DNA of 64,000 nt from a virus (lineage: Duplodnaviria > Heunggongvirae > Uroviricota > Caudoviricetes): the IMG/VR virus record IMGVR_UViG_3300027710_000010, positions 117,763 to 181,762 of that record, one strand, 5' to 3'. Below are positions 36,444-54,999 of the stretch, piece after piece. Both the position numbers and the translations under genes were made by a program. How positions within the stretch are numbered: the stretch's first letter is position 1; each line of letters opens with the position of its first letter. A model generated the notes under the pieces. The model worked only from the letters and a program-made list of their open reading frames with translations, was not told the origin of the DNA and made no database searches.

Positions 36444-36463
36444 TACTGTACTAGCTACAGATT

Positions 36464-36494: not shown

Positions 36495-36509
36495 GATAAA
36501 TATTAGACT

Positions 36510-37010: not shown

Positions 37011-37290
37011 GAACGCTTTAGAATACATACGCCAGGACTGGTCAAGTCACCCCTGGCGTTTCGTTGCGGAGACTTACAATGCTTTTACAGCATTGGCCAC
37101 TGCTATTATATTTGCTTGGATGGCACCTAATGTGCCCTATGGCTTGACCTATCCCTTATGGTTAAGCGGCACAATTTTAATGATATTTTGCGGCATCAGC
37201 CGAAACAGCACGGGCATTGTGGTCATGAGTATACTCATGACCGTTATCGATGTTGTGGGCTATGCTCGCTTTTTGTTAGGCATGAACTAA
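37003..37290 (+). CDS. small multi-pass membrane protein
   Basis: Three hydrophobic segments. Confidence 0.7.
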   Translation: MLKNALEYIRQDWSSHPWRFVAETYNAFTALATAIIFAWMAPNVPYGLTYPLWLSGTILMIFCGISRNSTGIVVMSILMTVIDVVGYARFLLGMN

Positions 37291-39814: not shown

Positions 39815-39889
39815 AACCTGTGGATAACTTGACAGCCCACGAGACCAATATGCGCGAAGCGCTCAGCGCCAGCAGAAAAATTTGTAGCG

Positions 39890-40042
39890 TTAAAATGCAT
39901 ACTTAATTAAGGGAACAGGTCCAATCTTATAGCCATTCGCACCACCAGAGGCCGTAATAGTATCTACACTGGCACAACCTGACATAACATGAACTACTAC
40001 TATACAGGCTATAACAAGGATAGTCAAGTGCAGTTTATCCAT
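39890..40042 (-). CDS. small lipoprotein (50 aa)
   Basis: Hand-translated MDKLHLTILVIACIVVVHVMSGCASV... Confidence 0.55.
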   Translation of the reverse strand: MDKLHLTILVIACIVVVHVMSGCASVDTITASGGANGYKIGPVPLIKYAF

Positions 40043-40163
40043 GCCGAGAGTCTCGTGTAAACATTACACGAAACTCTCTCAAGTCCGCGTCTAATGGTAG
40101 TCCGATCATGCCCAATCCAAAGCAAGCCAATCCATATAGTAAGTCAATGAATAACAAGTACAT
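40035..40163 (-). CDS. small membrane peptide (42 aa)
   Basis: Hand-translated; coupled to neighbours by overlaps. Confidence 0.4.
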   Translation of the reverse strand: MYLLFIDLLYGLACFGLGMIGLPLDADLREFRVMFTRDSRHG

Positions 40164-40264
40164 TAGTGTGGGCCATATGGGTTAAGGGGACGATCTGTTT
40201 CACCTTCCTGAGGTGGATATACAGGATACTGATTGGGATCGGTGTTAGTGTTCATAGTATAATA

Positions 40265-40608
40265 TATAGCAAAGGTCTAGCTGTGGGCTCATGCATATCG
40301 ACTGTATATACACTGTACACTATACACTAGACAATATAGTCTTCTCGACAACATCGTTCCAGTGTGGGATCAATCAACAGGGCAAGGTCTACACACTGCT
40401 CAGGTATCCAAAACATCATGTGCGTGTATCTATCACTGATGAATCCCGTTTTAAATTGGATTAACTGCCATAACCGTTCTCGAACATCAAGGCTGGAGGT
40501 GCATTTGAAACATAGCATACGCATAGTGATTGTATTTACTGTATATACGTATGGTCTAGCTGTGGGGTCCTGTGGGTACACTGTATAGCAAAGGTCTAGC
40601 TGTGGGCT
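40265..40608 (+). repeat. direct repeat TATAGCAAAGGTCTAGCTGTGGGCT (2 full copies + 1 partial)
   Basis: Copies at 40265-40289 and 40584-40608; core GGTCTAGCTGTGGG also at 40553-40566. Confidence 0.85.
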
Positions 40609-41020
40609 TTACTGTATATACAGTGGAGGAGGCGGAAAAGATAGGAAAGGTAGGGAGAGTATTTGAACATAGCCACTCGGCACCACAAGCCTATCAAAAA
40701 TTTCTGCACAGGATTCCTTATGCTAGGCCTATCAAATGACGTGTTCGCCCGGTTCTGTTGCACTTTTTCACACCTTTTTGCACCTTTCTACACCATTTGA
40801 CCACCGTTATCACCGCCTATTGCAACGGTTTCTACGGTGACACCATTGTGTATATACAGTGTGTCGATGATATGAGTGGAGCTGACTCCTGTGTAACTGC
40901 TATATACAGTATATACAGTGGAGTTGAGCTGACTCTTATCGACTGTATATACAGGGAGCATGCGATGGATCTAGATCACTATACACAGTATATACGGCGT
41001 CAACTCAGTCATATACAGTA
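40302..41020. repeat. cluster of CTGTATATA/TATATACAG motifs, including palindromes
   Basis: Sites at 40302, 40539, 40611 (ACTGTATATACAGT), 40851, 40901, 40910 and 40943 (CTGTATATACAG), plus degenerate copies. Confidence 0.85.
40327..40581 (-). CDS. hypothetical protein (FWIPE family)
   Basis: MMFWIPEQCVDLALLID; similar to 52333..52545 (RFWVPE). Confidence 0.55.
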   Translation of the reverse strand: MYPQDPTARPYVYTVNTITMRMLCFKCTSSLDVRERLWQLIQFKTGFISDRYTHMMFWIPEQCVDLALLIDPTLERCCREDYIV

Positions 41021-41162
41021 TGACACGAAGAGTGCTACACGAAACGCTCATTATCAATTGGGTCTACTAATAGGAGTTATCGCTCAAGCGGCGGCTCATG
41101 ACAATAAAATAATAGATATTATACAGGCGACTTTGGCGGAGAATCCACACAGGATTAAGTAG
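40965..41162 (+). CDS. small helical hypothetical protein
   Basis: Start MDLDHY after GGAG RBS. Confidence 0.6.
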   Translation: MDLDHYTQYIRRQLSHIQYDTKSATRNAHYQLGLLIGVIAQAAAHDNKIIDIIQATLAENPHRIK

Positions 41163-41326
41163 TATTAGGCGGCGGAGGACATCAAAAATTTGGCTAGGAT
41201 CGGCAGGTTTTCAAAACCATTTCCAAACCAAAATCATATTCAAAACCTTTCGCCCAGCCTCGCCGTCCATCCCCTTAAGCAGTTCGAACACTCTCTACAG
41301 TCTACCTGTTTTCTTATTATGTCTTA

Positions 41327-41355
41327 ATTATAGCACTGGTTCACCAAAATGTCAA
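41327..41355 (-). promoter_or_regulatory. divergent copy of the array promoter, firing into the repeat-rich zone
   Basis: TTGACA-TTTTGGTGAACCAGTGC-TATAAT on minus strand. Confidence 0.85.
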
Positions 41356-41451
41356 CCGGTGTGACGAACCCATGACGGCCGTGTGGGTATTATTTTGGCT
41401 CTTGACGTTTTGGTGGACCTGCGTTATAATACATTTTTAAAGGAAATAAAG

Positions 41452-41601
41452 ATGCTAGAAGCAAAAGACGCAAAACGTAAAATTGACAGTTTGATGTTGC
41501 AACTGCAAGACATGCTAGATCAAGTTGGGCTTGACGAAAGCGAGCCTGTGCAAAATGCTTTTAATGCATTAGCCATTGTCTTAGACGATGTTGCGTATTA
41601 A
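41452..41601 (+). CDS. early small hypothetical protein
   Basis: Follows promoter 41402; AAGGA RBS. Confidence 0.7.
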   Translation: MLEAKDAKRKIDSLMLQLQDMLDQVGLDESEPVQNAFNALAIVLDDVAY

Positions 41602-41660
41602 CAACACAACGAGTGCGGGTTCTGCTTGACAAACGGGCGGACCTGCGCTATAATTATGAT

Positions 41661-41996
41661 ATGATGATGACAAAGACACGCAGAACTCCACGCAAGGACA
41701 GCTCCTATGTCATATACGAGATGACCAGCGAGCTTGGGGACTCATACATTGGACTCACCCGCAAGGGCACTGTGACCCCGGTTAAAGCGGTCCTAGAGCG
41801 GTGGCGTAAGCATAAGAGCCGTGCTCGTAACGAAGATCGTCGATGGGCGCTCTATGTCTACTTGAAGACTGGTGGTTTGGACTTGGGCTGGACCCATACA
41901 ATCATCGCCATCGTGCGTGGCCGTGCTGAAGCTTATGCATACGAGCGTGAGCTGGTCAAGATGGCTGAACCCACACTCAATGACCAGTATCTGTAA
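41661..41996 (+). CDS. GIY-YIG-like nuclease domain protein
   Basis: YVIYEMT..GDSYIGLT..RWRKH..E..L..TLN; near-leaderless after promoter 41626. Confidence 0.7.
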   Translation: MMMTKTRRTPRKDSSYVIYEMTSELGDSYIGLTRKGTVTPVKAVLERWRKHKSRARNEDRRWALYVYLKTGGLDLGWTHTIIAIVRGRAEAYAYERELVKMAEPTLNDQYL

Positions 41997-42064
41997 ATGG
42001 GTATTGGTTGACAGATTGGGGGAGTGGCGCTATACTGTATGAACACTAACGAAACGGAGCAGAT

Positions 42065-42349
42065 ATGAAAACAGACCACACCATGTACATATACAAGGCA
42101 GATCGTCGTAAGAAGTCGGGCGAACGACTGGTGTCCACTACAGTATGGCGCAACAGGGATGCCGCAGAGATGGCACGTGAGGTGCGTGAACTCCAGTACG
42201 AGCTATATCCTACCAGCAAGGGATTCCGCATAGAGTTTGTGGCTACGATGAAGACTGTGATTAACTTGATGTCGGGCAAGGAAGTACAGATCCCACACGA
42301 TACTCCACGAAGCTGTGATCCCTCTAGTGAACTCTACTGGAGCATGTAA
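42065..42349 (+). CDS. early hypothetical protein
   Basis: C-terminal TVINLMSGKEVQIPHDTPRSCDPSSELYWSM, a common large-phage motif. Confidence 0.8.
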   Translation: MKTDHTMYIYKADRRKKSGERLVSTTVWRNRDAAEMAREVRELQYELYPTSKGFRIEFVATMKTVINLMSGKEVQIPHDTPRSCDPSSELYWSM

Positions 42350-42443
42350 TACCCATTCACACTGTCAGGTCTTTTAACTAGGACTTGACAGTTTGGGGGA
42401 CTGGTGCTATACTGTATGAACACTAACGCAATGGAGCAATGAA

Positions 42444-43154
42444 ATGAACTTACTCAGCACCGCAAATCCCAAAATCCAAAAGGGCACCAAGCTAGGCTAC
42501 CTCAGCTTTATCTTGCACCTTGCTCCTGCAGACTTGAGCGGTCACAATACATGCCCTAAGGCTACGGCTGGTTGTAAGGCGGCATGCTTGAACACTGCCG
42601 GTCGTGGTGGCATGTTCAAGAAGGGTGAGACGACCAACATGATCCAGAAGGCACGTATCCGCAAGACATTGAGCTTCTTTGCAGACCGCGAGCAGTTCAT
42701 GAAGGACTTGGCTAAGGACATCCGCAAAGGCATCAAGCAGGCCTCCAAGCTGGGATTGACTCCCGTGTTCCGTTTGAATGGTACTAGTGACTTATCGTTT
42801 GAAAAGTATGAAGTAGAAGGCGCTAAGAACATCTTTGAGCTTTTCCCTACTGTACAGTTCTATGACTACACTAAGGTCTTGGGCCGTAAGGTCACAGACA
42901 TTGCCAACTACCACTTGACCTTCAGTGCCGCAGATGGCAACGATGCAGATGTGAACAAGGCTATTGCACAGGACATGAACGTGACTGTGGTCTTTGATCG
43001 GATCCCTGCTGAGTACAAGGGCAAGCCTGTGTTCAACGCAGACGAGACTGACCTGCGCTTCTTGGATCCAAAAGGTGTGGTCTTGGGCTTGAAGGCTAAG
43101 GGTCGTGCTAAGAAAGACCGTACAGGCTTTGTGGTCTTTATGCAACAGGCTTGA
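42444..43154 (+). CDS. GP88-family (radical-SAM-like) protein
   Basis: LHLAPA, NTCPKATAGCKAACLNTAGRG, FRLNGTSD, FYDYTK and DETDLRFLD motifs. Confidence 0.75.
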   Translation: MNLLSTANPKIQKGTKLGYLSFILHLAPADLSGHNTCPKATAGCKAACLNTAGRGGMFKKGETTNMIQKARIRKTLSFFADREQFMKDLAKDIRKGIKQASKLGLTPVFRLNGTSDLSFEKYEVEGAKNIFELFPTVQFYDYTKVLGRKVTDIANYHLTFSAADGNDADVNKAIAQDMNVTVVFDRIPAEYKGKPVFNADETDLRFLDPKGVVLGLKAKGRAKKDRTGFVVFMQQA

Positions 43155-43209
43155 CATTTTGGTAGACCGGTGCTATACTATAGGTTAAGTTAAACAAAAG
43201 GAGCGAGCG

Positions 43210-43407
43210 ATGCGTACACAGACAACGAAGCTTTTGGAGATGATGGACGAAGGCCTTATCTCAGCTGAAGCCGTAGCAGAGATGGCACTGGCCTACATGA
43301 GCGAAGACGAAGTGGCAGACATGATGCGAAGCAACGATATCCTGGACGAGGATGAGGACGTGGAAGATGACTTCCCGTTGAGCATGGAATACGACGAAGG
43401 GGAATGA
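43210..43407 (+). CDS. early small acidic protein
   Basis: Follows promoter 43151. Confidence 0.8.
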   Translation: MRTQTTKLLEMMDEGLISAEAVAEMALAYMSEDEVADMMRSNDILDEDEDVEDDFPLSMEYDEGE

Positions 43408-43408
43408 C

Positions 43409-43660
43409 ATGCTGATAACTAACGAATGGGATAGGGACAATCTGAACTTTCTATTGAGTACAGATGACGCTTGCCTCAAACACTGGCATGCCCAAGCAGA
43501 CGCAGATGACTTGGTCTATGCCCAAGAACTGCTCGCAGCCTACAGTGAAGAGCTGATCCTTAAGGCCAAAGAGCTTAGGATCGAGTGCGAGATGGAGCTT
43601 AAAGGTACCCATGAAGCTAGTGTGGTTATTAATGGAGTGCTTGACAAGTTCAAGAAGTGA
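43409..43660 (+). CDS. early hypothetical protein
   Basis: DRDNLNFLL..W..QADADDLVYAQEL. Confidence 0.75.
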   Translation: MLITNEWDRDNLNFLLSTDDACLKHWHAQADADDLVYAQELLAAYSEELILKAKELRIECEMELKGTHEASVVINGVLDKFKK

Positions 43661-43699
43661 CGCTATACTATAGGTTAAGTTAAACAAAAGGAGCGCGAA

Positions 43700-44140
43700 A
43701 TGGGAACACGATCACTGACTTTCGTTTATGAAGGCGATGAAGCAATCATCAACATGTACCGCCAATATGACGGCTACCCGACAGGACACGGCGCAGAGCT
43801 GGCCACGTTCCTCTCGCAGTTCGAGGCTATCACCAATGGCATCCGTGTAGGCGACACACGTAAGATTGCCAACGGCATGGGTTGCTTGGCTGCTCAACTT
43901 GTGGGACACTTCAAAGGCACTGAGGCAGGCGGCTTTTACCTGTACCCAACTAGTGCCAAGGACTGCGGTCAGGACTACGAGTACCACGTATACTCTGACA
44001 CACGAGGCCTGTGCGTTCGCATTACCGATCGCGGGTGCAACATGTTTGGTCTCACAATGTCGGACAAGAACGATGCTGTCTTTGATGGTACAGTAGCAGA
44101 GTTCACAGAGTTTTGCACAGAGCGGGAGACAGCAGAATGA
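43700..44140 (+). CDS. conserved phage protein
   Basis: MGTRSLT..MYRQYDGYP.GHG..NGMGCLAAQLV..DYEYHV. Confidence 0.85.
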   Translation: MGTRSLTFVYEGDEAIINMYRQYDGYPTGHGAELATFLSQFEAITNGIRVGDTRKIANGMGCLAAQLVGHFKGTEAGGFYLYPTSAKDCGQDYEYHVYSDTRGLCVRITDRGCNMFGLTMSDKNDAVFDGTVAEFTEFCTERETAE

Positions 44141-44283
44141 CTTGGGTGACTTGGATTAGAGATCCCAAAACGGGTGCGACCTTTAAGGTCTCTGTACAGG
44201 CTGATGATGTGGGCACGGCCCGTATGATGTTTGAAGGACAGTACGGTAGCCAAAATGTACTGCACCTCCCAAGTGCGGCTTGA
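44137..44283 (+). CDS. small hypothetical protein (48 aa)
   Basis: Hand-translated MTWVTWIRDPKTGATFKVSVQADDVGTARMMFEGQYG...; ATGA overlap. Confidence 0.65.
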   Translation: MTWVTWIRDPKTGATFKVSVQADDVGTARMMFEGQYGSQNVLHLPSAA

Positions 44284-44336
44284 CAATAGTGCGGACCCGT
44301 GCTATAATATACTTTTACACACGTTAGGAGCGACTA

Positions 44337-45215
44337 ATGGCTAGAGTAGTAACGATGGAGATGTTAGCGGACATGAAGAGTTCTAAGGCAGAAACTAAGA
44401 GCTTGGAGATGGAGAAAGTGGAGAAGGTCTCTAGCGAGACTGACGACGAGATCAAAGCACGACTGCGTGAGCGCTTTGGTATTTTGGATGACATGACACG
44501 TGCTGTGAAGAAGGGTGCAGTACGAGCAATGATCGTGTCAGGTCCCCCGGGTGTGGGCAAGAGCTTTGGTGTTGAGAAGGTCTTGGGCAAGCATGACCTT
44601 ATGGCCAACGTTGCAGGCAATGAGAAGCTGAAGAAGTATGAAGTGGTCAAGGGTGCGATGTCAGCGCTGGGCCTGTACAGTAAGCTCTATCAATACAGTG
44701 ACAGCAAGAACATTCTCGTGTTCGATGACTGTGACAGCGTCCTGCTGGACGACCTCAGCCTTAACATCCTTAAGGCAGCATTAGACAGTGGCTCAAAGCG
44801 CATGATCCACTGGAACACAGACAGCCACATGCTAAACCGTGAAGGCATTCCCAACAGCTTTGAGTTCAAGGGCGGTGCTATCTTTATCACCAACATCAAG
44901 TTCGAGAACGTTAAGAGCAAAAAGCTCAAGGATCACCTTGAGGCTTTGGAGTCACGCTGTCACTATCTTGACCTTACCATTGACACAGAGCGTGAAAAGA
45001 TCCTACGTATCAAGCAGATCGTTGAAGACGGCATGCTGGACAAGTATGATTTTGAAGCGGGTGCAAGAGAAGAGTTGATGAACTTCATTGACAATAATAA
45101 GAAGAAGCTGAGAGAACTCAGCCTGCGTATGGTGCTTAAACTGGCTGATCTAAAGGCCAGCTTTCCAGAACGTTGGACTGGCATCGCTGAAATGACATGT
45201 ATGCGTCGTGGTTAA
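44337..45215 (+). CDS. AAA-family P-loop ATPase
   Basis: VSGPPGVGKSF (Walker A), VFDDCD (Walker B), FITN and ALESR motifs. Confidence 0.9.
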   Translation: MARVVTMEMLADMKSSKAETKSLEMEKVEKVSSETDDEIKARLRERFGILDDMTRAVKKGAVRAMIVSGPPGVGKSFGVEKVLGKHDLMANVAGNEKLKKYEVVKGAMSALGLYSKLYQYSDSKNILVFDDCDSVLLDDLSLNILKAALDSGSKRMIHWNTDSHMLNREGIPNSFEFKGGAIFITNIKFENVKSKKLKDHLEALESRCHYLDLTIDTEREKILRIKQIVEDGMLDKYDFEAGAREELMNFIDNNKKKLRELSLRMVLKLADLKASFPERWTGIAEMTCMRRG

Positions 45216-45273
45216 CTGATTCGCTCCCAGAAGACTAGACCCTACACTGTCTAAAATCCCAATGGGGTTTTGG

Positions 45274-45305
45274 AGCCCTGGACTCGCTCCCCAGGGCTTT
45301 TTTTT
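45274..45305 (+). terminator. Rho-independent terminator
   Basis: AGCCCTGG/CCAGGGCT stem followed by T-run. Confidence 0.85.
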
Positions 45306-45605
45306 GGTTGACATTTTGGCAGACCTGTGTTATACTATACACTAGACACTAAGGAGATCGCAATGGCAATGGTAGAAGGCAAACGGGTGCAAGTTGGTGA
45401 CACTGTCAGCTTTAAGTGTGACATCGAACAATGTGGGACAATCTACAAGATAGAAGGGGACAGGCTGTTCCTGGAGAGCAAGTACGGGTTCCAGGGAGAC
45501 TACATTGGCGGGCAGGAAAAGACCATACAGTCTGCCAGGGATTGTTGGATAGAGGGTTGACATTTTGGTAGACCTGTGTTATACTATACACTAGACACTA
45601 AGGAG
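45306..45605 (+). repeat. 51-bp near-perfect direct repeat flanking one cassette
   Basis: GGTTGACATTTTGGYAGACCTGTGTTATACTATACACTAGACACTAAGGAG at 45306-45356 and 45555-45605, one mismatch. Confidence 0.95.
45363..45560 (+). CDS. small SH3/KOW-like beta protein
   Basis: VQVGDTVSFKCDIEQCGTIYKI. Confidence 0.75.
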   Translation: MAMVEGKRVQVGDTVSFKCDIEQCGTIYKIEGDRLFLESKYGFQGDYIGGQEKTIQSARDCWIEG

Positions 45606-45610
45606 CTGAT

Positions 45611-45880
45611 ATGTTAAATGTAGATAAGATTGTTAAGGTATACAACGGTCGGATGGGTTGCATGTGCGGTTGCAATGGCAAGTATTCTTATACTGCCGAC
45701 GGTGCAGTTAACCATGGCCCCGGCTACGATGTTACGGCAAGCGTTAACGAACGCTCCGTGCGTATTATGGCTAAGAAGATACTGGCTAATCCAAATGTGG
45801 AGTTTGAAGACAATTATGCGTTCGTAGAAGATCGCGCCCGTAATAAAATGCAAGTGGTTTATTTTAAGGAGAATCAATAA
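45611..45880 (+). CDS. early hypothetical protein
   Basis: YNGRMGCMCGCNGKY. Confidence 0.8.
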   Translation: MLNVDKIVKVYNGRMGCMCGCNGKYSYTADGAVNHGPGYDVTASVNERSVRIMAKKILANPNVEFEDNYAFVEDRARNKMQVVYFKENQ

Positions 45881-46059
45881 TGGGTGTTATGAAAGATTTG
45901 AGTTACGATGTGGAAGCACTATTCATTGACGGGTGCAGTCCCACAGAGATCGCCGAGCAACTATCAATCCCAGTAGACCTGGTCAAAGGCTTCCTCACCA
46001 GCTTTGGAGTTGATGTTCGTGACCTGGAAGACGAAGTCTATAGTCCTTACAATCCGTAA
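45880..46059 (+). CDS. small HTH-like protein (59 aa)
   Basis: Hand-translated MGVMKDLSYDVEALFIDGCSPTEIAEQLSIPVDLV...; AAGGAG RBS. Confidence 0.7.
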   Translation: MGVMKDLSYDVEALFIDGCSPTEIAEQLSIPVDLVKGFLTSFGVDVRDLEDEVYSPYNP

Positions 46060-46127
46060 GGGTATTGGTTGACAGATTGGCGGACCTGCGTTATACTATA
46101 GGTTAAGTTAAACAAAAGGAGCGATAG

Positions 46128-46391
46128 ATGAACATAAGCAACATTGAGCAGTATGTGGAACAAAAGAACAGCTGGGGCAAGATCTTTGGCTCCAAGCCAC
46201 TTAGCCTGTTGAATGCGGCAGATCGCCAGAAGATCGCCAATAGCTTGGATGCAGACCTTAGTCCAGAGAACCTCACATGCGATGGCGAGGTGCGTGGTGC
46301 GGCACTTCAGAACAAGGCACGCTACCTGCAACGCTGTGCTCAAGAGTTGCAGAGCATTGACCCTGCTGTTACCTTTTATGAATTCAACTAA
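46128..46391 (+). CDS. early conserved hypothetical protein
   Basis: LSPENLTCDGE motif. Confidence 0.8.
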   Translation: MNISNIEQYVEQKNSWGKIFGSKPLSLLNAADRQKIANSLDADLSPENLTCDGEVRGAALQNKARYLQRCAQELQSIDPAVTFYEFN

Positions 46392-46404
46392 GAAAGAAGA
46401 CTAT

Positions 46405-46536
46405 ATGAAAACCAACCGCGAGAAGAATCAGGAGTTTGATTCCAAGCAGTCCGGCCGGGTGCGACCTAAGGAGCCCGCTTACAATTGGAAACCATTGGAG
46501 GACGTGATCCGTTCATGGATCACGAAGGCTAAATGA
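46405..46536 (+). CDS. small hypothetical protein
   Basis: MKTNREKN...; coupled to the next ORF. Confidence 0.55.
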   Translation: MKTNREKNQEFDSKQSGRVRPKEPAYNWKPLEDVIRSWITKAK

Positions 46537-46793
46537 GTAGACTGGAGCTGTTTGGTCGACCCTATGTAACCTTTGATCCCGACAACAAAGACCATAGGCG
46601 ATATTACTATCAGTTCGTTGAAACGTCAAGCTGGGGCCAATGCCCTGTTAGGTTCGTGGTGCCAGAAGATCACGGAGATTTGGTTACGATGATTCAGCGG
46701 AGTTTGATTGCTCATTACGTTTCCAAAGAGTTCAATCGTCCAAAAAAGGTTGCTCAAAAAGGCAAGAAAACGGTTGACAGACGCAAGGATTGA
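46533..46793 (+). CDS. conserved hypothetical protein
   Basis: RPYVTFDP..KDHRRYY..SWGQCPVRF. Confidence 0.8.
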   Translation: MSRLELFGRPYVTFDPDNKDHRRYYYQFVETSSWGQCPVRFVVPEDHGDLVTMIQRSLIAHYVSKEFNRPKKVAQKGKKTVDRRKD

Positions 46794-46858
46794 GTTTATA
46801 ATTAATGCATACGATAAGGTATCGTATGTTTTTTTAACACACAGAAAGAGGCACACAA

Positions 46859-47212
46859 ATGGCAACAGATAAACAGTTTTCCGTAGTTGGTATTTCCAAA
46901 CTGAATGGCGATTATAAAGTTCGTTTCGCCAACGACATCATGCGTATCAAAGTACTCGCTAAAGGCGGACACGAAGACATTCGCTTGGCAGACCTTGAGG
47001 CTCCCTTGTCCAAGATGGATGCTGTAGTCGCAATGTCCAAGCTGGATGAGTTCCAAGACGTCATTGCTAAGGCAACTATCGCAGAATATGTGGAGCGCAA
47101 TACTCCACGAGCAAAGCCGGAGTCTACTCCTACAGCAACTAAGAAGACTGCTGTTAAGGCCCCAGCTAAGGCCAAGGCTGCTGTCACTGAGAACGAGGAC
47201 GCTCCCTTCTAA
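46859..47212 (+). CDS. conserved hypothetical protein with Lys/Ala-rich tail
   Basis: VVGISKLNG.YKVRFAND.MRIKVLAKGGHEDIRL. Confidence 0.8.
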   Translation: MATDKQFSVVGISKLNGDYKVRFANDIMRIKVLAKGGHEDIRLADLEAPLSKMDAVVAMSKLDEFQDVIAKATIAEYVERNTPRAKPESTPTATKKTAVKAPAKAKAAVTENEDAPF

Positions 47213-47248
47213 ACACCAGGGGAGGCAACTCCCCTAAATATATCTATT

Positions 47249-47440
47249 ATGAGCTGGACACTTTATGAAGTTTGGGCCGACGACAATGGCCACGAAGAAC
47301 TTATCGATACAACCTATAGCGAACCTGAAGCAATTCAGATGGCCAAAGACGCAGTAGAGGCGGGTGCGGACTATGCTATAATCTATCGTGAAGATAAGGA
47401 AGGCGAGCTAATAGAGTTAATGAGATTTCCGGGTCCTTAG
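47249..47440 (+). CDS. small hypothetical protein
   Basis: TAAATA box upstream; stop codon overlaps the tRNA. Confidence 0.7.
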   Translation: MSWTLYEVWADDNGHEELIDTTYSEPEAIQMAKDAVEAGADYAIIYREDKEGELIELMRFPGP

Positions 47441-47508
47441 CTCATGTTGGTTAGAGCAGTGGACTCATAATCCATTGGTGCCCAGTTCGACTCTGGGAGG
47501 ACCCACCA
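47431..47508 (+). tRNA. tRNA with CAT anticodon, probably tRNA-Ile2 (lysidine type)
   Basis: Acceptor GGGTCCT/AGGACCC, loop CTCATAA, G27-U43 and C5-G68 as in Ile2, encoded CCA. The Ile2 versus Met identity is an inference. Confidence 0.9.
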
Positions 47509-47511
47509 GAC

Positions 47512-47548
47512 AAGGGGTGTTGCGTAAAAACAACACTCCTTTTCTTTT
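47512..47548 (+). terminator. Rho-independent terminator after the tRNA
   Basis: AAGGGGTGTTG/CAACACTCCTT stem followed by T-rich tail. Confidence 0.8.
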
Positions 47549-47604
47549 GGTTGACTGATTGGTGGACCTGTGTTATACTATACACTAGACACTAAGGAGC
47601 TGAT

Positions 47605-47850
47605 ATGATAGACACAGGATACGAAGTAGAGTACAAGGGCAAGACATTCCGTTGCACTCATGGTTGCCCATTTGATCGTGGATCGGCAGACAGCTACTAC
47701 GGACGCATCCGTAACCCACACAAAGGCGGAGTAGGCGGCGACAGTGGCCCCCGTATTGAAAGCAACGAGATGACACTGCAAGAGATTGCGGACTACGGCG
47801 CTGGCTACAATTACAATGAACAGTTTGGCGACAAGAAGTCGTGGGATTAA
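47605..47850 (+). CDS. early conserved hypothetical protein
   Basis: HGCPFDRGSADSYYGR..PH..Y.AGY.YNE..GDKKSWD. Confidence 0.85.
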   Translation: MIDTGYEVEYKGKTFRCTHGCPFDRGSADSYYGRIRNPHKGGVGGDSGPRIESNEMTLQEIADYGAGYNYNEQFGDKKSWD

Positions 47851-47914
47851 ACGGTTGACATTTTGGTTGAGCTGTGCTATAATATACACATACACTAAAC
47901 AAACGGAGCAACAG

Positions 47915-48301
47915 ATGGAAGATTTCAAAAGCTGGGAAGAGATGTCCGTGTTGGAGCAGTACGCTTGCACCTACTGGGATATGTACAAGGATGCCTATGG
48001 CGTTCGTCCCCGCGGTGTTGATACTTCCAGCTGGACTGAAGCAGAGTTCGAAGCTGAGTTCGTCAGCTTGAGCAAGACCATAGATGCCAACTACAAAGAG
48101 CAGTTGGTTGCCGAAGAGAAGGCCACCATTGACTTTGAGATGCGGGTGCAGGGGTTGATGACGTCGGGTGCTAAGGACTACGAGATGGCCATGCGTTGGA
48201 TCCATGAGGCAGAGGGTAGCAATGGCGATGACGACTACCTTTGCTTCCTAGTGGGCTTGCCTTATGGATACTTCCGTAAGGTTGACAAGGTTGCGGTTTG
48301 A
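47915..48301 (+). CDS. early conserved T4-like phage protein
   Basis: WDMYKDAYGVRPR motif. Confidence 0.85.
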   Translation: MEDFKSWEEMSVLEQYACTYWDMYKDAYGVRPRGVDTSSWTEAEFEAEFVSLSKTIDANYKEQLVAEEKATIDFEMRVQGLMTSGAKDYEMAMRWIHEAEGSNGDDDYLCFLVGLPYGYFRKVDKVAV

Positions 48302-48338
48302 TAGTATAATATACACATACACTAAACAGGAGCGCACA

Positions 48339-48506
48339 ATGAATCCAGGTCCAGGCTTTATCCGTTTTGTTTTTGGTCTTATCCTCACCATGAGTGCAGT
48401 TGGTGCCAGCGACGAGGCCAGCATCAGTTCAATCCTCTTCTATGCGTTCTTTGGCATTGTAATTATGGCCAATGGCGTGCAAGCAATGAAGGCCGCAAAT
48501 GAGTAA
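48339..48506 (+). CDS. small two-TM membrane protein
   Basis: Two hydrophobic helices. Confidence 0.7.
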   Translation: MNPGPGFIRFVFGLILTMSAVGASDEASISSILFYAFFGIVIMANGVQAMKAANE

Positions 48507-48909
48507 GGTATCAGTCACAGTAGATCAGCTGAAGGCATTCTTCAAGATTGATTGCACCCTACAGACTAAGGCATTCAGTTCCTACAAGGACTTGAAGAAG
48601 ACCAGTCGTGGAGTCTATGTACTGACCACAGAGGACGACTTGATTGTCTATGTGGGCAAGGGCGACATCAAAGCTAGGCAGGACAGTCATTGGTTCAAGG
48701 CACATGGCACTCCTAAGAAGCATCAGATCGATCCCAAGGGCTGGAAGTGGTTGCGTGAGAACCACACGATCACTCCGGGCCTATGGACAATCAACTACAT
48801 TGAACTGGCTCGTGAGACTGAGCTGAGTGCAATGGAGGGCGGCCTAATCCACATCCTGCAACCCTTGGCCAATGATGAAACATTCAAAGACCGGTTGACA
48901 GAAGACTGA
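48499..48909 (+). CDS. GIY-YIG-like domain protein
   Basis: GVYVLT..IVYVGKGDIKARQDSH..E..LI..LQPLAN. Confidence 0.75.
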   Translation: MSKVSVTVDQLKAFFKIDCTLQTKAFSSYKDLKKTSRGVYVLTTEDDLIVYVGKGDIKARQDSHWFKAHGTPKKHQIDPKGWKWLRENHTITPGLWTINYIELARETELSAMEGGLIHILQPLANDETFKDRLTED

Positions 48910-48955
48910 TTTCATAGTATAATAGACACATACACTAAGCAACAAGGAGCACACT

Positions 48956-49339
48956 ATGTCTAAAGATTACGATAACTTCAACAGCTTTGACCTCAACGAA
49001 GCCTGCGATTACTTTGACTGCGAGCTACAGAAGAACTGGAAGAAGATCAATAAGTTCGTAGTGGCCGATGGCGCAGACACTGCCACAGTCCTAGAGGACT
49101 TTGGATTCGATCGTGATGAGATTGGCCAAGCAGAGTACGAGGCATTTGACGCAGGTGTCAAGTATGTTCTAACTCGTATGCAGGAGAGCTTTGAGGCGGC
49201 TGGCCTAGAGCTGGAGATCAAGGAAGCAGACCTTGGTGAAACCATGGGTTATATGCTTACCCGTGTGGATGACGATGCAGAGAGCTTCGTCAAGCGGGTG
49301 CTGAAGAAGCCTGTAATGGTAGTTGAAGGTTGGGTCTAA
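48956..49339 (+). CDS. early acidic hypothetical protein
   Basis: Follows promoter 48895. Confidence 0.8.
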   Translation: MSKDYDNFNSFDLNEACDYFDCELQKNWKKINKFVVADGADTATVLEDFGFDRDEIGQAEYEAFDAGVKYVLTRMQESFEAAGLELEIKEADLGETMGYMLTRVDDDAESFVKRVLKKPVMVVEGWV

Positions 49340-49404
49340 AAACGCTTGACAAAGATTAGAACTGGTGCTATACTGTATAAACTGTAACACACTAAGGAGC
49401 TGAT

Positions 49405-49680
49405 ATGAAAACGATTCAAGAAGTGAATAGCGCAATCATGTTTGGTACATGGACAGACACAGAGCTGTCCAGCATGATAGATGCAGTCAAGTTCAACCGT
49501 GCCAGTCTAGCCAAACAGAACAAGCGCCAGTTCACCTTAGGCAGTGTAGTCAAGTTCACCAGCAATAAGAATGGTCTTACATACCAAGGCAAGGTAGAGA
49601 AGATCGCGATCAAATACGTCACAGTGGCCACGACACAGGGCCGCTGGAGAGTGCCAGCTAACATGTTGTCAGCGGCATAA
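49405..49680 (+). CDS. early protein with SH3/KOW-like C-terminus
   Basis: FTLGSVVKF..YQGKVEKI..YVTV..WRVPANML. Confidence 0.8.
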   Translation: MKTIQEVNSAIMFGTWTDTELSSMIDAVKFNRASLAKQNKRQFTLGSVVKFTSNKNGLTYQGKVEKIAIKYVTVATTQGRWRVPANMLSAA

Positions 49681-49811
49681 GGTTTGCTCCAGGTCCGAGC
49701 CGGGGGGTAGTGTCCCTAGTAGCAAGTTCGCGACCGCAACCAGCGGGGGGTCTCGTGAGAGATGGCCCCGCATCTATTCCAGGAATACCCAACTAAAACG
49801 GTTGGGTATTC
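49681..49811 (+). ncRNA. candidate structured RNA (three hairpins)
   Basis: GC-rich non-coding gap; GNRA-capped hairpin 49743-49771; perfect 11-bp stem 49783-49811. Confidence 0.35.
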
Positions 49812-49879
49812 TACTGTGTGCTTGACATTTTGGTAGACCTGTGTTATACTATACACATAAACACTAAAGGAGCAGGCAA

Positions 49880-50095
49880 ATGCAAAAGGTAACAGTAGTA
49901 GACATAGCGGCAGATGGCTTTTACGCTAGCGAGCACATGAGCGGCAGTTGCGTTAAGGTAACACTGCAACGCGGTACAGAAACTGTGACATGCGGTCAGA
50001 TACTGATTTGGGATGAGGAATACGCTGAGGATTGCTTTGAAGAGTGGCGAGATTGTGCGCTTGCAGGTGAAGAAGGATACACTTACACAGCGTAA
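49880..50095 (+). CDS. early small hypothetical protein
   Basis: Follows promoter 49822. Confidence 0.75.
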   Translation: MQKVTVVDIAADGFYASEHMSGSCVKVTLQRGTETVTCGQILIWDEEYAEDCFEEWRDCALAGEEGYTYTA

Positions 50096-50174
50096 GGTCT
50101 TTGACAGCAGGGCTTGACATTTTGGTTGAGCTGTGCTACAATGTACACATACACTAAAGCAACAGGAGCAGTAA

Positions 50175-50330
50175 ATGAGAGACGCAATATTGGCAAAGCT
50201 GGCAGAGGTAGATGACATGCTACAGGCTGCAACCTTAGACGGCGACAAGCTGACAGAGATGGAGTGCTTTGCGGAACTGGAAGGTGCTTTGCATAAGTTA
50301 ACAGAAGCGGTAGACTACTATGTGGATTAA
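50175..50330 (+). CDS. early small helical protein (51 aa)
   Basis: Hand-translated MRDAILAKLAEVDDML...; follows promoter 50114. Confidence 0.7.
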   Translation: MRDAILAKLAEVDDMLQAATLDGDKLTEMECFAELEGALHKLTEAVDYYVD

Positions 50331-50547
50331 TAACACACTACAGTGGACGGGCACTGTGTGCCTACTGGCGATGTACGTGCTGATGAGCTTTCGCCCAGAC
50401 CTGCATCCCTGGAACATTGTAGCAGGCATCCTGGGCGGAGCATGTTACCTAGCATGGACCGTTAGGGTTGGCAACCGCCCACAGTTGATTGTAAACGCAG
50501 TGGCAATAACCATAGGACTAGCAGGGTTATTGAAGGCGTGGGCTTGA
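50320..50547 (+). CDS. small three-TM membrane protein
   Basis: LQWTGT..PWNI..YLAW..NRPQLIVN. Confidence 0.75.
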   Translation: MWINNTLQWTGTVCLLAMYVLMSFRPDLHPWNIVAGILGGACYLAWTVRVGNRPQLIVNAVAITIGLAGLLKAWA

Positions 50548-50610
50548 CAAAACGGCTGAGCTGTGCTATAATATACACATACACATACACTAACAAAGCA
50601 GGAGCAATAA

Positions 50611-50832
50611 ATGAGTAAAGCATTAAACAAACGGATTTCAAAAGCATTTGACGCAATCTACAGCAAAGGCGACAACGGCTTGGACTACATGGACCGCCAT
50701 TGCGAAATGGACGCGGACCTTATGCAGTTCTTTTATGATGACGCTGTAGACACACTGAGCAAAGCAGACAAACAGCGTATGGCAGACATGCTAGAGACTG
50801 TGGTAGCTGACATGGCATTTGATTTAGTTTAA
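50611..50832 (+). CDS. early small acidic protein
   Basis: Follows promoter 50544. Confidence 0.75.
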   Translation: MSKALNKRISKAFDAIYSKGDNGLDYMDRHCEMDADLMQFFYDDAVDTLSKADKQRMADMLETVVADMAFDLV

Positions 50833-50896
50833 GCATTGACAAATTGGTTGAGCTGTGCTATAATTGACACATACACTAGCAAAACAGGAGCAAGAA

Positions 50897-51142
50897 ATGA
50901 AAGTAGCAGACCTCATAGCAGAATTGCAGTACATGGACGCGGATGCAGAAGTCCATTTCTCATACAATTACGGCGACCATTGGCGCACAGAAGTTGCCCC
51001 TAAGGTGGGTAGCATTAGCCAAGGTGTAGTGGAGTTTAGCGACTATCATCGTATGGACAAGATGGTGGACGACGAGGACTGCTACGATGAAGACACAGGC
51101 GACTACAAGGCCGATGTGCGACGTGTAGTGGTCATTAGCTAA
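50897..51142 (+). CDS. early small hypothetical protein
   Basis: MKVADLIAELQYMDADAEV. Confidence 0.8.
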   Translation: MKVADLIAELQYMDADAEVHFSYNYGDHWRTEVAPKVGSISQGVVEFSDYHRMDKMVDDEDCYDEDTGDYKADVRRVVVIS

Positions 51143-51151
51143 GGAGTTGAT

Positions 51152-51406
51152 ATGATTACAGCAGACACACTCAGCGCCCTGACCACATACAGTCCACAGT
51201 TCCTAACACGAGCCGCAGAGCTGGCAGGCTATAAAGGCCCTGAGTTCACGTCCTGTAAGTTCCTGGGCATTACCAATGGCGGACAGTTCTGCTACTTTGC
51301 AGTCTATCCGGTCAAAGGTGGTACAGATAGTACCAAAGTATTCCTCACATATAACCATGCTGAGGACCAGGTCTTTGCCGACTACCAATTGACAGAACTG
51401 GCATAA
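51152..51406 (+). CDS. early hypothetical protein
   Basis: FLGITNGGQFCY; AAGGAG RBS. Confidence 0.75.
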   Translation: MITADTLSALTTYSPQFLTRAAELAGYKGPEFTSCKFLGITNGGQFCYFAVYPVKGGTDSTKVFLTYNHAEDQVFADYQLTELA

Positions 51407-51445
51407 GACAGTATAATAAACACTTAAACACACTAAGGAGCTAGA

Positions 51446-51640
51446 ATGTACAATGTCATCGAGAACCCCATCCCCAAGAGCAACTTGTTCACCAGCCCAA
51501 GCCTAGCAGAGATCCAAAGCTTCATCAAAGCCCTGCCCACTAAGGAGCAGGCCAATGCTAACCTAGTGTTCATGTTCACGCTCAACAGTTGCAATGAGTT
51601 AGTAGAGACTAACATATTGAGCAAGGAAATCTTTGCTTGA
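51446..51640 (+). CDS. early small hypothetical protein
   Basis: Follows promoter 51389. Confidence 0.75.
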   Translation: MYNVIENPIPKSNLFTSPSLAEIQSFIKALPTKEQANANLVFMFTLNSCNELVETNILSKEIFA

Positions 51641-51694
51641 CAAAGGCTTGGACTGAGCTTATACTGTATGAACACTAACACAAAGGAGCGAGCA

Positions 51695-52021
51695 ATGGTA
51701 ACAGCAGATCAAGTAGCAGAGGGCAAGCAATTAGCTAACCAAGCCAGCATGAAGTTCTTCCAAGAGCGCTTGGGTGGACGTGATCAGTATGCATGTGGCT
51801 TTGCTTGGGTAACAGTACACGGCGTTCGTAGCAATAGCAAGCAGGGCAAGGAGCTGGCACAAGAAGGCTTTAGCAAGAGCTACACAGGCGGACTACAGTT
51901 GTGGAACCCCAGCGGCCTGCATGTGCAGAACGTGGACACACTGGAGGCGGGCGCAGAAGCCATGGCCGAGTTCCTTCGTAGCTTGGGCTTGGAGGCTTAT
52001 GCAGGTTCAAGACTAGATTAA
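51695..52021 (+). CDS. conserved phage protein (CGFAWV family)
   Basis: ACGFAWV..G..W.P..QN...EAGA.A.A..L..G..AYAGSRLD. Confidence 0.85.
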   Translation: MVTADQVAEGKQLANQASMKFFQERLGGRDQYACGFAWVTVHGVRSNSKQGKELAQEGFSKSYTGGLQLWNPSGLHVQNVDTLEAGAEAMAEFLRSLGLEAYAGSRLD

Positions 52022-52046
52022 AGGTCGCCGGCTAAGCGAAAAGATT

Positions 52047-52067
52047 CCGCTCTGGCGGTTTCTTTTT
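52047..52067 (+). terminator. probable terminator closing the early array
   Basis: CCGC-TCTG-GCGG followed by TTTCTTTTT. Confidence 0.55.
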
Positions 52068-52332
52068 GACAAAAGATTCTAGGGGTCGGTGGCTATACAA
52101 ATAAAACTGTTGCTAAAAAACAACAGCGCAAAGCCTAAAAAAATCTACACACGCTAAAAACGGACCCATATGTGTAGAAACACCCCCACCAAACTCTAAG
52201 TACTTCTCTTTATTTTTCCGTATTCTAATTTTTAACCCTGCAAGACCCCTTTCGCATATATACTTGTACTATGCAGATACCCTCCGCCTACGATCCTGTA
52301 CTGTATGAAATTATATTAGAATGGTTAAAATT

Positions 52333-52545
52333 ATGCGCCAATACTACGTACTAACCCAAGACCCACGCTTGTCCACTGTGTTTGAGTTTATTCAAGACCA
52401 TAAGTTACAGTTCGAAGTGCATGCCAATCGCACACGCTTTTGGGTGCCCGAGGGATCAGTGCTTACAGAGTTCTTGCTACGCTACAGTGACTTGGAGCAA
52501 GTTGACCATCGTTTGGACTTAATAACTGGCCTACCTCGACTGTAA
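52333..52545 (+). CDS. hypothetical protein (FWVPE family)
   Basis: FEVHANRTRFWVPEG..TEFLLRY. Confidence 0.7.
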   Translation: MRQYYVLTQDPRLSTVFEFIQDHKLQFEVHANRTRFWVPEGSVLTEFLLRYSDLEQVDHRLDLITGLPRL

Positions 52546-52644
52546 GTACTCCCAAAAATTTTTTTGCGCTAGAAATTTTTCTAGTTAAAATACATCACTG
52601 TAATCTAACTCAAATATAAATACTTGCTCACACAAGGAGTTCCC

Positions 52645-52779
52645 ATGATCTACTCTGTCATACTGCCCAGTGGTTCAGTAATGCGTTTTTATATTGAGGA
52701 TGTGGCTAGAACATATGCCGTAATGTATAAGGGGACTCTTGTTACGGAATCCCCTCCACGTCTTAAGCTAGTAGCTTAA
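52645..52779 (+). CDS. small hypothetical protein (44 aa)
   Basis: Hand-translated; TATAAATA at 52615-52622 and AAGGAG RBS. Confidence 0.65.
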   Translation: MIYSVILPSGSVMRFYIEDVARTYAVMYKGTLVTESPPRLKLVA

Positions 52780-52984
52780 CAATCTCTTCTGGCGTTTCAG
52801 CCACTTCCCAAGTACCATGAGGCGGGCAATGCACAAAAGTAATGTCTTCAACCACTGTGTCACCACCTTCCTCTTCTGGCGGACGAGTCACTGTGCTACG
52901 ATGGATACTGACAATGTTTGACGAGTTAAGTACAACTTGTCTGCCCTTGAACGCTGGGTTTGCGTTGGTTAATGTAATAAACAT
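52763..52984 (-). CDS. FlbD-like small protein
   Basis: MFITLT..VVLNSSNIVSI..WEVAETPEEIVKLL pattern. Confidence 0.55.
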   Translation of the reverse strand: MFITLTNANPAFKGRQVVLNSSNIVSIHRSTVTRPPEEEGGDTVVEDITFVHCPPHGTWEVAETPEEIVKLLA

Positions 52985-53016
52985 AAAAGTCCTTTGTTGG
53001 ACTAGTACTTAGCATC

Positions 53017-53235
53017 ATGTATACGCTAAACGTGGATTATCTGATAAACGATGCTTTAAGGCCATTGGGCGCACAAGTTGGTGAATTGACCAGAGAAATA
53101 TGGCTTTGCGACATCGCTAGGGCAGGTATTTGCTACACTAGACTCAGTGACAGTGAGATTTTAATAGAATCACGTGATTTAACTAAAATTGTCTTATTCT
53201 ACACAAATCCCAGTATTCAGCTGTCTTTGGCTTAG
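53017..53235 (+). CDS. hypothetical protein
   Basis: ORF track; plausible composition. Confidence 0.5.
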   Translation: MYTLNVDYLINDALRPLGAQVGELTREIWLCDIARAGICYTRLSDSEILIESRDLTKIVLFYTNPSIQLSLA

Positions 53236-53249
53236 GTCCACGTAAATAC

Positions 53250-53495
53250 TTGATGATTACAGAACAATATCAACAACAGGGCACTATATATGGTGATGCT
53301 CCCTCTACTGGGTCGCCTATTAGCGGTGGCACGGATACTGCACGTACAGACGCTAATGCACGATCGGACATGATGCGTATTATGAGTAGGTTGGAAATGG
53401 TCGAGCGAGATTTATCACGTGCGCGGCATCGTATACAACAGTTGGAAACAGCTATTGGGCTTATAGAACAACGTGTTAATTCTAGGTTGAGCTAA
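53250..53495 (+). CDS. small coiled-coil protein
   Basis: TAAATA box at about 53244; C-terminal coiled coil. Confidence 0.6.
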   Translation: MMITEQYQQQGTIYGDAPSTGSPISGGTDTARTDANARSDMMRIMSRLEMVERDLSRARHRIQQLETAIGLIEQRVNSRLS

Positions 53496-53586
53496 CTGCA
53501 TTTCTGGCGCGAGCGCTGGCAGCTTCGCTGCTTTTGGGCATCTGGGCCGCACCTGCATAAATATTATATTGAAATTAGGGATTCAC

Positions 53587-54495: not shown

Positions 54496-54923
54496 TCCAA
54501 ACAGTATTCAAAGTTCCAAGTATCGGCGTTGGCCCTAATAAGACTAGCGCCGTTCTTTTCATGAAACTTCTGTGCCATGGCAGTTTGCGGACTTAGTGTT
54601 ACCATCTTCTTAATAGAGTCGGGTAATTGGTCTCTAACAGCAAATATCAGCTTCTGTGCCGCACCCGCACTATAACTCCAAATAGTATAAGCAACAGCAA
54701 CGGTCAACTCATGTTCAGGCGGTGCCAACATGCTCATTTCACTTTCTGGTACTGCATCACATAGAGCTATACACACTGCGGCTAAGATTTGATCTTGCTC
54801 AGTCCATAGGTATATGCTGGCTCTTGAGTTGATGCGATTCTCAATGGCAATATTGGGACGAACTGGATCGTCCTTGATGACTCCGGCTCGTGGATCTTCT
54901 AGTGTGGTAATTTGTTCTAACAT
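54492..54923 (-). CDS. conserved phage protein (GNAT-like fold suspected)
   Basis: DDPVRP, YTIWSY and VTLSPQT.MA.KFH..NGA motifs. Confidence 0.7.
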   Translation of the reverse strand: MLEQITTLEDPRAGVIKDDPVRPNIAIENRINSRASIYLWTEQDQILAAVCIALCDAVPESEMSMLAPPEHELTVAVAYTIWSYSAGAAQKLIFAVRDQLPDSIKKMVTLSPQTAMAQKFHEKNGASLIRANADTWNFEYCLD

Positions 54924-54999
54924 GGCGTGTTCCTTAGTAAGTGTGACAGTATTATATGCGTATTTATTATATTATTGCAAAAACTCTGTTACACTTGTG

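Follow-up and report, generated by a model that had tools for sequence, protein, structure and literature searches.

A dense array of sigma70-type promoter-leader units between small genes in an uncultivated T4-like jumbo phage

Introduction

The hyperplastic regions of T4-type phages contain PeSL units, in which a terminator stem-loop is combined with a sigma70-like early promoter and a Shine-Dalgarno sequence (Arbiol et al. 2010, PMC2839356; Comeau et al. 2014, PMC4122927). PeSLs bound the insertions and deletions (indels) between close relatives, the crossovers map between the -10 box and the ATG, such crossovers have an experimental precedent in RB49 and phi1, and T4 recombination requires less than 50 bp of homology (PMC2839356). 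The cassettes also form mini-circles which are detectable by inverse PCR (PMC2839356, PMC4122927). In this study we analysed 64,000 nucleotides (nt) of the IMG/VR virus record IMGVR_UViG_3300027710_000010 (positions 117,763 to 181,762; hereafter the window), in which promoter-leader units are repeated between small genes in an array spanning 41327-52072. We propose that this array is probably a hyperplastic early-gene region of an uncultivated T4-like jumbo phage, with the units serving as portable recombination homology.

Other phages also gather many small early genes behind multiple strong host-type promoters, as in the SPO1 host-takeover module and the T5 pre-early region, which are thought to act in host takeover. 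These modules lie in terminal repeats or in first-step-transfer DNA, their lineages are unrelated to the phage of the array, and promoter-mediated shuffling is not a defining trait of either.

Results and discussion

Architecture of the promoter-leader units

The pattern TTGACA-N17-TATAMT had 23 exact matches in the 64-kb window, whereas 0.02 would be expected by chance. Nineteen of these are on the plus strand of the array, between 41626 and 51665, and one is on its minus strand at 41327-41355. A search allowing one mismatch added plus-strand copies at 41402, 47551 and 50114, giving the same 22 plus-strand copies and one divergent copy that an earlier note on this DNA had counted. Agreement with the two hexamers was 10-12 of 12 positions at the 23 sites, and the spacing was 17 nt at all of them. 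The promoters are followed by 31 plus-strand genes encoding 36-292 amino acids (aa), one to three per promoter, of which the 36-aa g14 is uncertain; the earlier estimate of about 31 small genes was therefore accurate.

Each unit is arranged as a -35 box, the 17-nt spacer, a -10 box, an AC-rich leader, a Shine-Dalgarno sequence and an ATG. The succession of leader, Shine-Dalgarno sequence and short open reading frame (ORF), also described in the earlier note, was found in 20 of the 22 units. The leader is 21-39 nt long, typically 25-32 nt, and the Shine-Dalgarno sequence, 5-9 nt ahead of the ATG, is AAGGAG or GGAGC-like, with a weaker AAGGAAA at P41402 (promoters are named by position). The two units off this pattern are P41626, which is without a leader, and P46774, whose leader is long and forms a hairpin. 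The spacer frequently ends in a TG or TRTG extended -10 element. A spacer family, TTTTGGnnGAsCTGyGy, was observed in about 12-14 units and is missing from promoters that extend into the 3' end of the preceding gene. The units group into repeat families of 54-73 nt whose best copies are 84-92% identical, and four leader types (A, B, C and D) are recognisable. The intergenic DNA of the array is almost entirely promoter-leader.

Relatives were collected by an IMG/VR search with g09, which yielded 80 loci with 72-88% amino-acid identity. The same promoter-plus-gene architecture was found in all 80, with 854 plus-strand and 38 minus-strand promoters. Counted over 60 arrays, there were 875 promoters and 1346 genes, or 1.54 genes per promoter; roughly half of the promoters reach into the 3' end of the gene ahead of them, and 187 (20%) provide that gene with its stop codon, the TGA within TTGACA. 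Relatives reach 28 units in 14.5 kb, compared with 22 units in 10.3 kb in the window.

The array in a T4-like genome

The parent record of the window is a single sequence of 299,582 bp, estimated to be 83% complete, which encodes a T4-type Gp23 capsid protein (E 1.7e-98) and, elsewhere in the genome, a RecA/UvsX-like recombinase. The g09 protein is 37% identical to T4 NrdC.10 (E 9.5e-44), the T4 match being located on nrdC.10, and this gene sits in the nrdC-tk variable stretch among many small non-essential early genes. Since g09 is a homologue of NrdC.10, the array is the apparent counterpart of the T4-type hyperplastic early region. Homologues of g09 are carried by more than 1300 deposited T4-like and related phages. 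The closest cultured relative of g09 is that of Pseudomonas phage PA5oct (48% amino-acid identity), where a single promoter precedes the gene and there is no promoter array. When the array was compared with deposited phages by megablast, a tRNA gene was the sole match, and no close cultured relative was found.

Comparison with described systems

The array resembles the PeSL regions of RB49/phi1, T4/PST and KVP40/nt-1 in several respects. In both, near-consensus TTGACA-N17-TATAAT early promoters precede a Shine-Dalgarno sequence and an ATG, and the units recur between the small orphan genes of a T4-like hyperplastic region. The units bound the indels, swaps and displacements seen among relatives, although in the array this pattern is not exclusive. 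Crossovers lie between the -35/-10 boxes and the ATG, and no dedicated recombinase is known. The likeness to PeSLs suggested in the earlier note therefore holds for the promoter, the Shine-Dalgarno sequence, the hyperplastic location and the breakpoints, but not for the upstream terminator stem-loop, which is present in three of the 22 units (45308, 47551 and 49822) and missing in the other 19, so that the cassettes of the array would not be transcriptionally insulated. Other differences from PeSLs are the overlap of promoters with upstream genes and the stop codons supplied by them, the denser units, and a different host and clade (freshwater-type metagenomic jumbo phages).

The T4 nrdC-tk region likewise holds NrdC.10 among small early genes and is transcribed by the host polymerase in a sigma70-dependent manner, but it has far fewer promoters per gene and its cargo genes are unrelated. 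The early promoters of T4 have a different -35 consensus, TTTACW (PMC4122927). Integron arrays are similar in their same-strand, small, unrelated and often orphan genes, their repeated separator and their highly variable content. However, no integrase was detected among the array proteins by Pfam and PHROGs, there is no attC or attI, and the repeat is a promoter and not an imperfect-palindrome attC. Each unit has its own promoter where integrons have a single upstream one, and the junctions are spread over about 70 nt.

Whereas the motif family and mechanism had been put forward as possibly undescribed, they belong to the known PeSL kind of T4-type phages (PMC2839356, PMC4122927), and the phage itself is T4-like. 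Judged by these comparisons, the array is best filed as stem-loop-poor, very dense PeSL-type shuffling in a new clade, for which the concept has already been published. Within that concept, the array shows the terminator half of the PeSL to be dispensable, the exchange of leaders to be independent of the genes, and crossovers within genes to play a part.

Copying of units and exchange of leaders

Across the family of relatives the spacer carries only 0.1-0.5 bit of information per position. Within genomes, 14-15% of the spacer pairs are at least 75% identical in the window and in the related loci L004-L007, compared with a background of 1%. An exact scan of IMG/VR with the spacer pattern of the window returned three loci only, because the spacer is clade-specific, and from this restriction we conclude that the spacer spread by copying and that the wider family does not need it. 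Concerted evolution, tested globally, was not detected, in that the units were overall no more similar within genomes than between genomes; the clade of the window and L004-L007 alone was an exception.

The leaders gave a consistent picture. Type B was found in 3 of 22 units in the window, 10 of 18 in L005 and 9 of 17 in L007. The leader of g05 in the window is 100% identical to the leader of g23 in L007, while the g23 leaders of the window and L007 are 67% identical. Leader types are thus common to non-orthologous cassettes and differ between orthologues. Since the leader types are not tied to genes, the units are copied and exchanged without regard to the ORFs, and the earlier view that they were copied rather than convergently evolved is borne out by both the spacer and the leaders.

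Genome-wide, 58 promoter-like sites were found, and those outside the array have spacers unrelated to the array type, with one exception. This unit, at C1:94307-94335 on the minus strand of the same genome, 23.4 kb before the window, has an array-type spacer and is preceded by a perfect terminator stem-loop, which makes it a canonical PeSL-type unit. It suggests the transfer of a unit between the array and another region.

Gene content and order among relatives

The cargo pool of the 60 arrays comprises 138 families and 81 singletons with a median length of 78 aa. Gene order among the relatives is heavily scrambled, as expected under the gene shuffling that had been proposed; identical order in the relatives, which would have spoken against it, was clearly not observed. 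For example, g09 is last, after g31, in most relatives, and is in the middle of the array in the window and its nearest relatives. The g02 family is at the start of the array in 17 loci. A core is conserved, consisting of the block g13-g15/g16-g17-tRNA-Met, in which the order g13-f6-f13-g15 is kept in relatives. Adjacency of two families is kept in 27% of co-occurrences when a promoter separates them, in 44% when the junction is promoter-less and in 83% in the downstream flank, which is free of promoters; these counts are over pairs of loci that are phylogenetically non-independent.

In at least 12 relatives, a promoter unit just upstream of the g22 cassette is followed by only about 100 nt of conserved sequence (e.g., L055:1595-1760, L067:8928-9095, L081:9026-9190, L019:6029-6205 and L034:8941-9120), which would be either a small RNA or a basic ORF of only about 17 aa; the window lacks this cargo and has g20-g21 at the corresponding place. 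Consecutive promoters without a called gene were considered as empty units, and this was rejected, as the cargo of about 100 nt (tiny ORF or non-coding RNA) lies between them.

Breakpoints and recombination joints

Homology breakpoints (n = 1163) were obtained from an all-against-all BLASTN comparison of the loci. Fifty percent of them fall within -10 to +65 of the -35 box, whereas 16% would do so for random positions, and there are sharp peaks where the -35 box starts and where the -10 box ends, both of which are sharpened by BLAST extension through the shared hexamers. In L005 and L007, whose g09 are 91% identical, three switch points lie within promoter cores and leave the 17-nt register undisturbed. 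Among these L005/L007 events is an indel of the g24 cassette, where a single L007 promoter aligns to both of the flanking L005 promoters, which is the signature predicted for recombination between direct repeats. Among 138 unique recombinant junctions, 38 are in the promoter core, 47 in the leader and Shine-Dalgarno sequence, 32 in upstream DNA and 21 in an ORF. There is no fixed site, which argues for general and against site-specific recombination.

The most recent joint found is in the window itself, at 50069/50070 inside g24, and the next -35 box follows 44 nt downstream. Over positions 34337-50070, the window and contig L090 share 99.975% identity. Compared base by base with L091, the window has zero mismatches in 50069-50700, and the full-length alignment (49837-62021), in which the divergent 5' part of g24 is still contained, gives 99.45% identity. 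To the left of the joint, identity to L091 drops to 70-77% and its genes are ordered differently. The change from one type to the other takes place within 2 nt of shared identity, and L090 and L091 come from one ENA sample. This indicates that the window is an apparent mosaic of two co-occurring lineages, formed by recent recombination between diverged partners. An assembly chimera at this position was judged unlikely; the parental types share no k-mer-length identity there.

Reordering by recombination between the repeats, as the earlier note envisaged, is thus backed by the concentration of breakpoints on the units, but the breakpoints are not confined to the repeats, as the joint in g24 and a break at a bare Shine-Dalgarno/ATG (below) illustrate. 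The repeats contribute to recombination, probably to an important extent, and are not its only substrate.

Proposed mechanism and alternative explanations

In the mechanism that we propose, the 22 near-consensus sigma70 promoters, with their short unstructured AC-rich leaders and strong Shine-Dalgarno sequences, would allow the host RNA polymerase to express the 31 small genes, most of them orphans, one to three per unit and immediately after infection, that is, as immediate-early transcripts. The promoter-leader repeats of 54-73 nt have spread within the lineage by copying and exchange. We infer that the phage's general recombination machinery, including the UvsX/RecA-like recombinase encoded elsewhere, uses the units as portable homology. 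Crossovers between non-orthologous units would delete, insert, swap and reorder genes, while leaving each gene with its promoter and ribosome site. A further contribution would come from crossovers within shared genes or at bare ribosome sites, and neither a dedicated recombinase nor a fixed crossover site would be involved.

Several observations weigh against the units as portable homology and would be explained by a dense early-promoter region only, in which the repeats serve expression, recombination (general, homeologous or illegitimate) occurs anywhere, and selection keeps intact genes and promoters. Promoter-less junctions also break often, with 44% retention of adjacency. The loci L031 and L032 share 98.7% identity over 12.7 kb and then diverge precisely at the Shine-Dalgarno/ATG of g28, where there is no promoter close by, and the recent joint of the window is inside a gene with 2 nt of shared identity. 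From one gene to its neighbour, the jump in identity is no greater across promoters (0.102) than across promoter-less junctions (0.122). Since the intergenic DNA is nearly all promoter-leader, selection for intact genes alone would enrich breakpoints on the units. The sharpening of the two peaks by BLAST and the non-independence of the locus pairs belong on the same side, as does the early timing, which is read from the promoter type only. It is difficult, however, to reconcile such a region with crossovers in promoter cores in exact register, among them the L007 promoter that aligns to both flanks of the L005 g24 indel, or with leaders that are replaced independently of the ORF, one type occupying 9-10 units of L005 and L007. 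The clade-specific spacer family shows the units themselves to be copied, and crossovers in such units have been obtained experimentally in RB49/phi1 (PMC2839356). We therefore consider a dense promoter region without a role for the repeats in recombination to be rather unlikely, though it deserves the most attention among the alternatives.

The conserved spacer in the window's genome could also be read as a recognition site, at which a nuclease or recombinase (e.g., the GIY-YIG candidates g02 or g21) moves single cassettes in an integron-like manner. Two GIY-YIG-like genes are present in the array, g21 being recognised by eye, and the position of g02 at the array start in 17 loci would agree with this. 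On the other hand, the spacer is unconserved across the family while shuffling is family-wide, the junctions lack a fixed core site and extend from DNA ahead of the -35 box as far as the Shine-Dalgarno sequence, and Pfam and PHROGs searches of the array proteins gave no integrase or transposase family. Moreover, g21 is unique to the window's genome, g02 is a bare catalytic domain only and falls below the Pfam cut-off, and several relatives without g02 have equally shuffled arrays, which makes dedicated cassette mobility very improbable. Just as improbable, in our judgement, is that binding of a regulator (an early shut-off, mRNA-stability or translation factor) maintains the similarity of spacer and leader through selection rather than copying. 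Such a factor could explain why the AC-rich core of the leader and the GG immediately before the -35 box show moderate family-wide conservation (up to about 1 bit) and why the TG/TRTG extended -10 element is frequent. But the particular spacer is limited to one clade and is without clear dyad symmetry by eye, and discrete, near-identical leader subfamilies differ between orthologous cassettes of sister genomes, which is a signature of copying.

An extension of the portable-homology reading is more speculative, and we regard it as doubtful: the stem-loop-free units might form a recombinase-independent platform for gene capture, with single cassettes excised as circles and re-inserting at any other unit, including those of co-infecting relatives, so that the pool, at least 138 families and the singletons, would circulate throughout a freshwater jumbo-phage clade as a store of host-takeover and anti-defence genes. 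The 60 arrays, with about 875 promoters and about 220 cargo families, form a large natural dataset on early accessory-gene variation in T4-like phages.

Cargo genes

No Pfam family was found for 26 of the 30 cargo proteins scanned (all but the uncertain g14), and a few match PHROGs of unknown function. The functional identities given in the earlier note were upheld in part. The GP88 match of g04 is solid (E 1e-39), and the AAA match of g09 is weak in Pfam, yet the protein is the NrdC.10 homologue. By contrast, GIY-YIG is weak for g02 and was not detected by Pfam for g21, which resembles GIY-YIG by eye only and has no homologue in 82 related loci (a singleton family). A marginal zinc-finger match of g18 (E 0.0089) is below the cut-off. 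Sequence searches of the PDB with g07, g09, g16, g19 and g31 gave no relatives. The cargo is thus almost wholly uncharacterised. As host-takeover and anti-defence functions are usual among early, hypervariable small phage genes, such a role would be plausible here, which makes the cargo families candidates to be screened for function.

The g16 cassette invariably carries a leader of its own, with a hairpin a few bases past the transcription start that is usually followed by a T-run; such leaders are at 46803-46840 in the window, at L005:8045-8106, at L009:5552-5609 and in 30 other loci. When leaders were folded individually, 26 of 35 g16 leaders reached -5 kcal/mol or below, compared with 11 of 567 other leaders. 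The structure is conserved and the sequence is not, and this leader never takes part in leader swapping. RNAalifold gave no consensus for the g16 leaders because the hairpin lengths differ. The hairpin may act close to the promoter as an attenuator or terminator, or may stabilise the mRNA at its 5' end.

Order of the cassettes in the window

The left edge of the array is formed by the divergent promoter at 41327-41355 (minus strand, exact TTGACA-N17-TATAAT), which is back to back with P41402. This minus/plus pair is kept in 14 relatives. The minus promoter reads leftward into an ORF-poor, repeat-rich zone (40260-41355); at a comparable place in PA5oct, upstream of the small-gene block preceding its NrdC.10 homologue, a "putative lncRNA" has been annotated on the basis of RNA-seq (L086:9040-9658).

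All 22 cassettes are on the plus strand. Cassette 1 (41402-41601) has P41402 with one mismatch (TTGACG) and g01 (41452-41601, 49 aa), whose family is present in 15 loci. Cassette 2 (41626-41996) consists of P41626 and g02 (41661-41996, 111 aa), the weak GIY-YIG match (Pfam E 3e-4, below the cut-off). The ATG of g02 is about 7 nt past the -10 box (41654-41663), with no leader and no Shine-Dalgarno sequence, and g02 may have a leaderless mRNA or be translated from read-through transcripts alone. Two type A leaders follow, in cassette 3 (42008-42349; P42008, g03 at 42065-42349, 94 aa), whose unit is of repeat family D5 and 91% identical to the unit at 42385, and in cassette 4 (42385-43154; P42385), which carries the GP88 gene g04 (42444-43154, 236 aa; PF17338, E 1.1e-39; PHROG 1617). 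The stop codon of g04 is the TGA inside the TTGACA of P43151. Type B leaders are found in cassette 5 (43151-43660; P43151, repeat family D3), with g05 (43210-43407, 65 aa) and g06 (43409-43660, 83 aa), and in cassette 6 (43641-44283; P43641), with g07 (43700-44140, 146 aa) and g08 (44137-44283, 48 aa).

Cassette 7 (44280-45306; P44280) contains g09 (44337-45215, 292 aa), the AAA-type ATPase homologous to NrdC.10, and a terminator-like hairpin with a T-run is located behind it at 45272-45306. This stem-loop is directly upstream of cassette 8 (45308-45560; P45308, leader type C, repeat family D2), with g10 (45363-45560, 65 aa). Cassette 9 (45557-46059; P45557, also type C) has g11 (45611-45880, 89 aa) and g12 (45880-46059, 59 aa). 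The conserved core block begins in cassette 10 (46069-46793; P46069, type B), with g13 (46128-46391, 87 aa), the uncertain g14 (46426-46536, 36 aa) and g15 (46533-46793, 86 aa). Cassette 11 (46774-47549; P46774) contains g16 (46859-47212, 117 aa), g17 (47249-47440, 63 aa) and tRNA-Met(CAT) at 47431-47508, together with the leader hairpin and T-run at 46807-46836, a hairpin at 47218-47235 and a terminator at 47512-47549. With this terminator stem-loop directly upstream, cassette 12 (47551-47850; P47551 with TTGACT, leader type C, g18 at 47605-47850, 81 aa) is PeSL-like.

Three type D leaders are next: cassette 13 (47855-48301; P47855) with g19 (47915-48301, 128 aa, PHROG 21968), cassette 14 (48282-48909; P48282) with the hydrophobic g20 (48339-48506, 55 aa) and g21 (48499-48909, 136 aa), and cassette 15 (48895-49339; P48895) with g22 (48956-49339, 127 aa). 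In this part a minus-strand antisense ORF of 206 aa (47585-48205) spans P47855, g18 and g19; it is very likely spurious and misleads length-based gene callers. In cassette 16 (49346-49821; P49346), g23 (49405-49680, 91 aa) is followed by 140 nt of GC-rich non-coding DNA (49681-49821), which ends in a strong 13-bp hairpin at 49782-49812 (z -4.5) and could be a small RNA or a terminator region. An Rfam search of the array gave no match except the tRNA, and this stretch was without a match.

Cassette 17 (49822-50095; P49822) has g24 (49880-50095, 71 aa), which holds the joint at 50069/50070. Type D leaders return in cassette 18 (50114-50547; P50114 with -10 box TACAAT, repeat family D4), with g25 (50175-50330, 51 aa) and the hydrophobic g26 (50320-50547, 75 aa), in cassette 19 (50544-50832; P50544), with g27 (50611-50832, 73 aa), and in cassette 20 (50836-51406; P50836), with g28 (50897-51142, 81 aa) and g29 (51152-51406, 84 aa). 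Cassette 21 (51389-51640; P51389) carries g30 (51446-51640, 64 aa), and cassette 22 (51637-52068; P51637, leader type A) carries g31 (51695-52021, 108 aa). The array is closed by a terminator-like hairpin with a T-run at 52037-52068. The GC content of the array (41000-52000) is 47-49%, compared with 40.7% for the genome, and both GC and AT skew are positive; these features would fit translation of early genes by host tRNAs before the phage's about 40 tRNAs are made.

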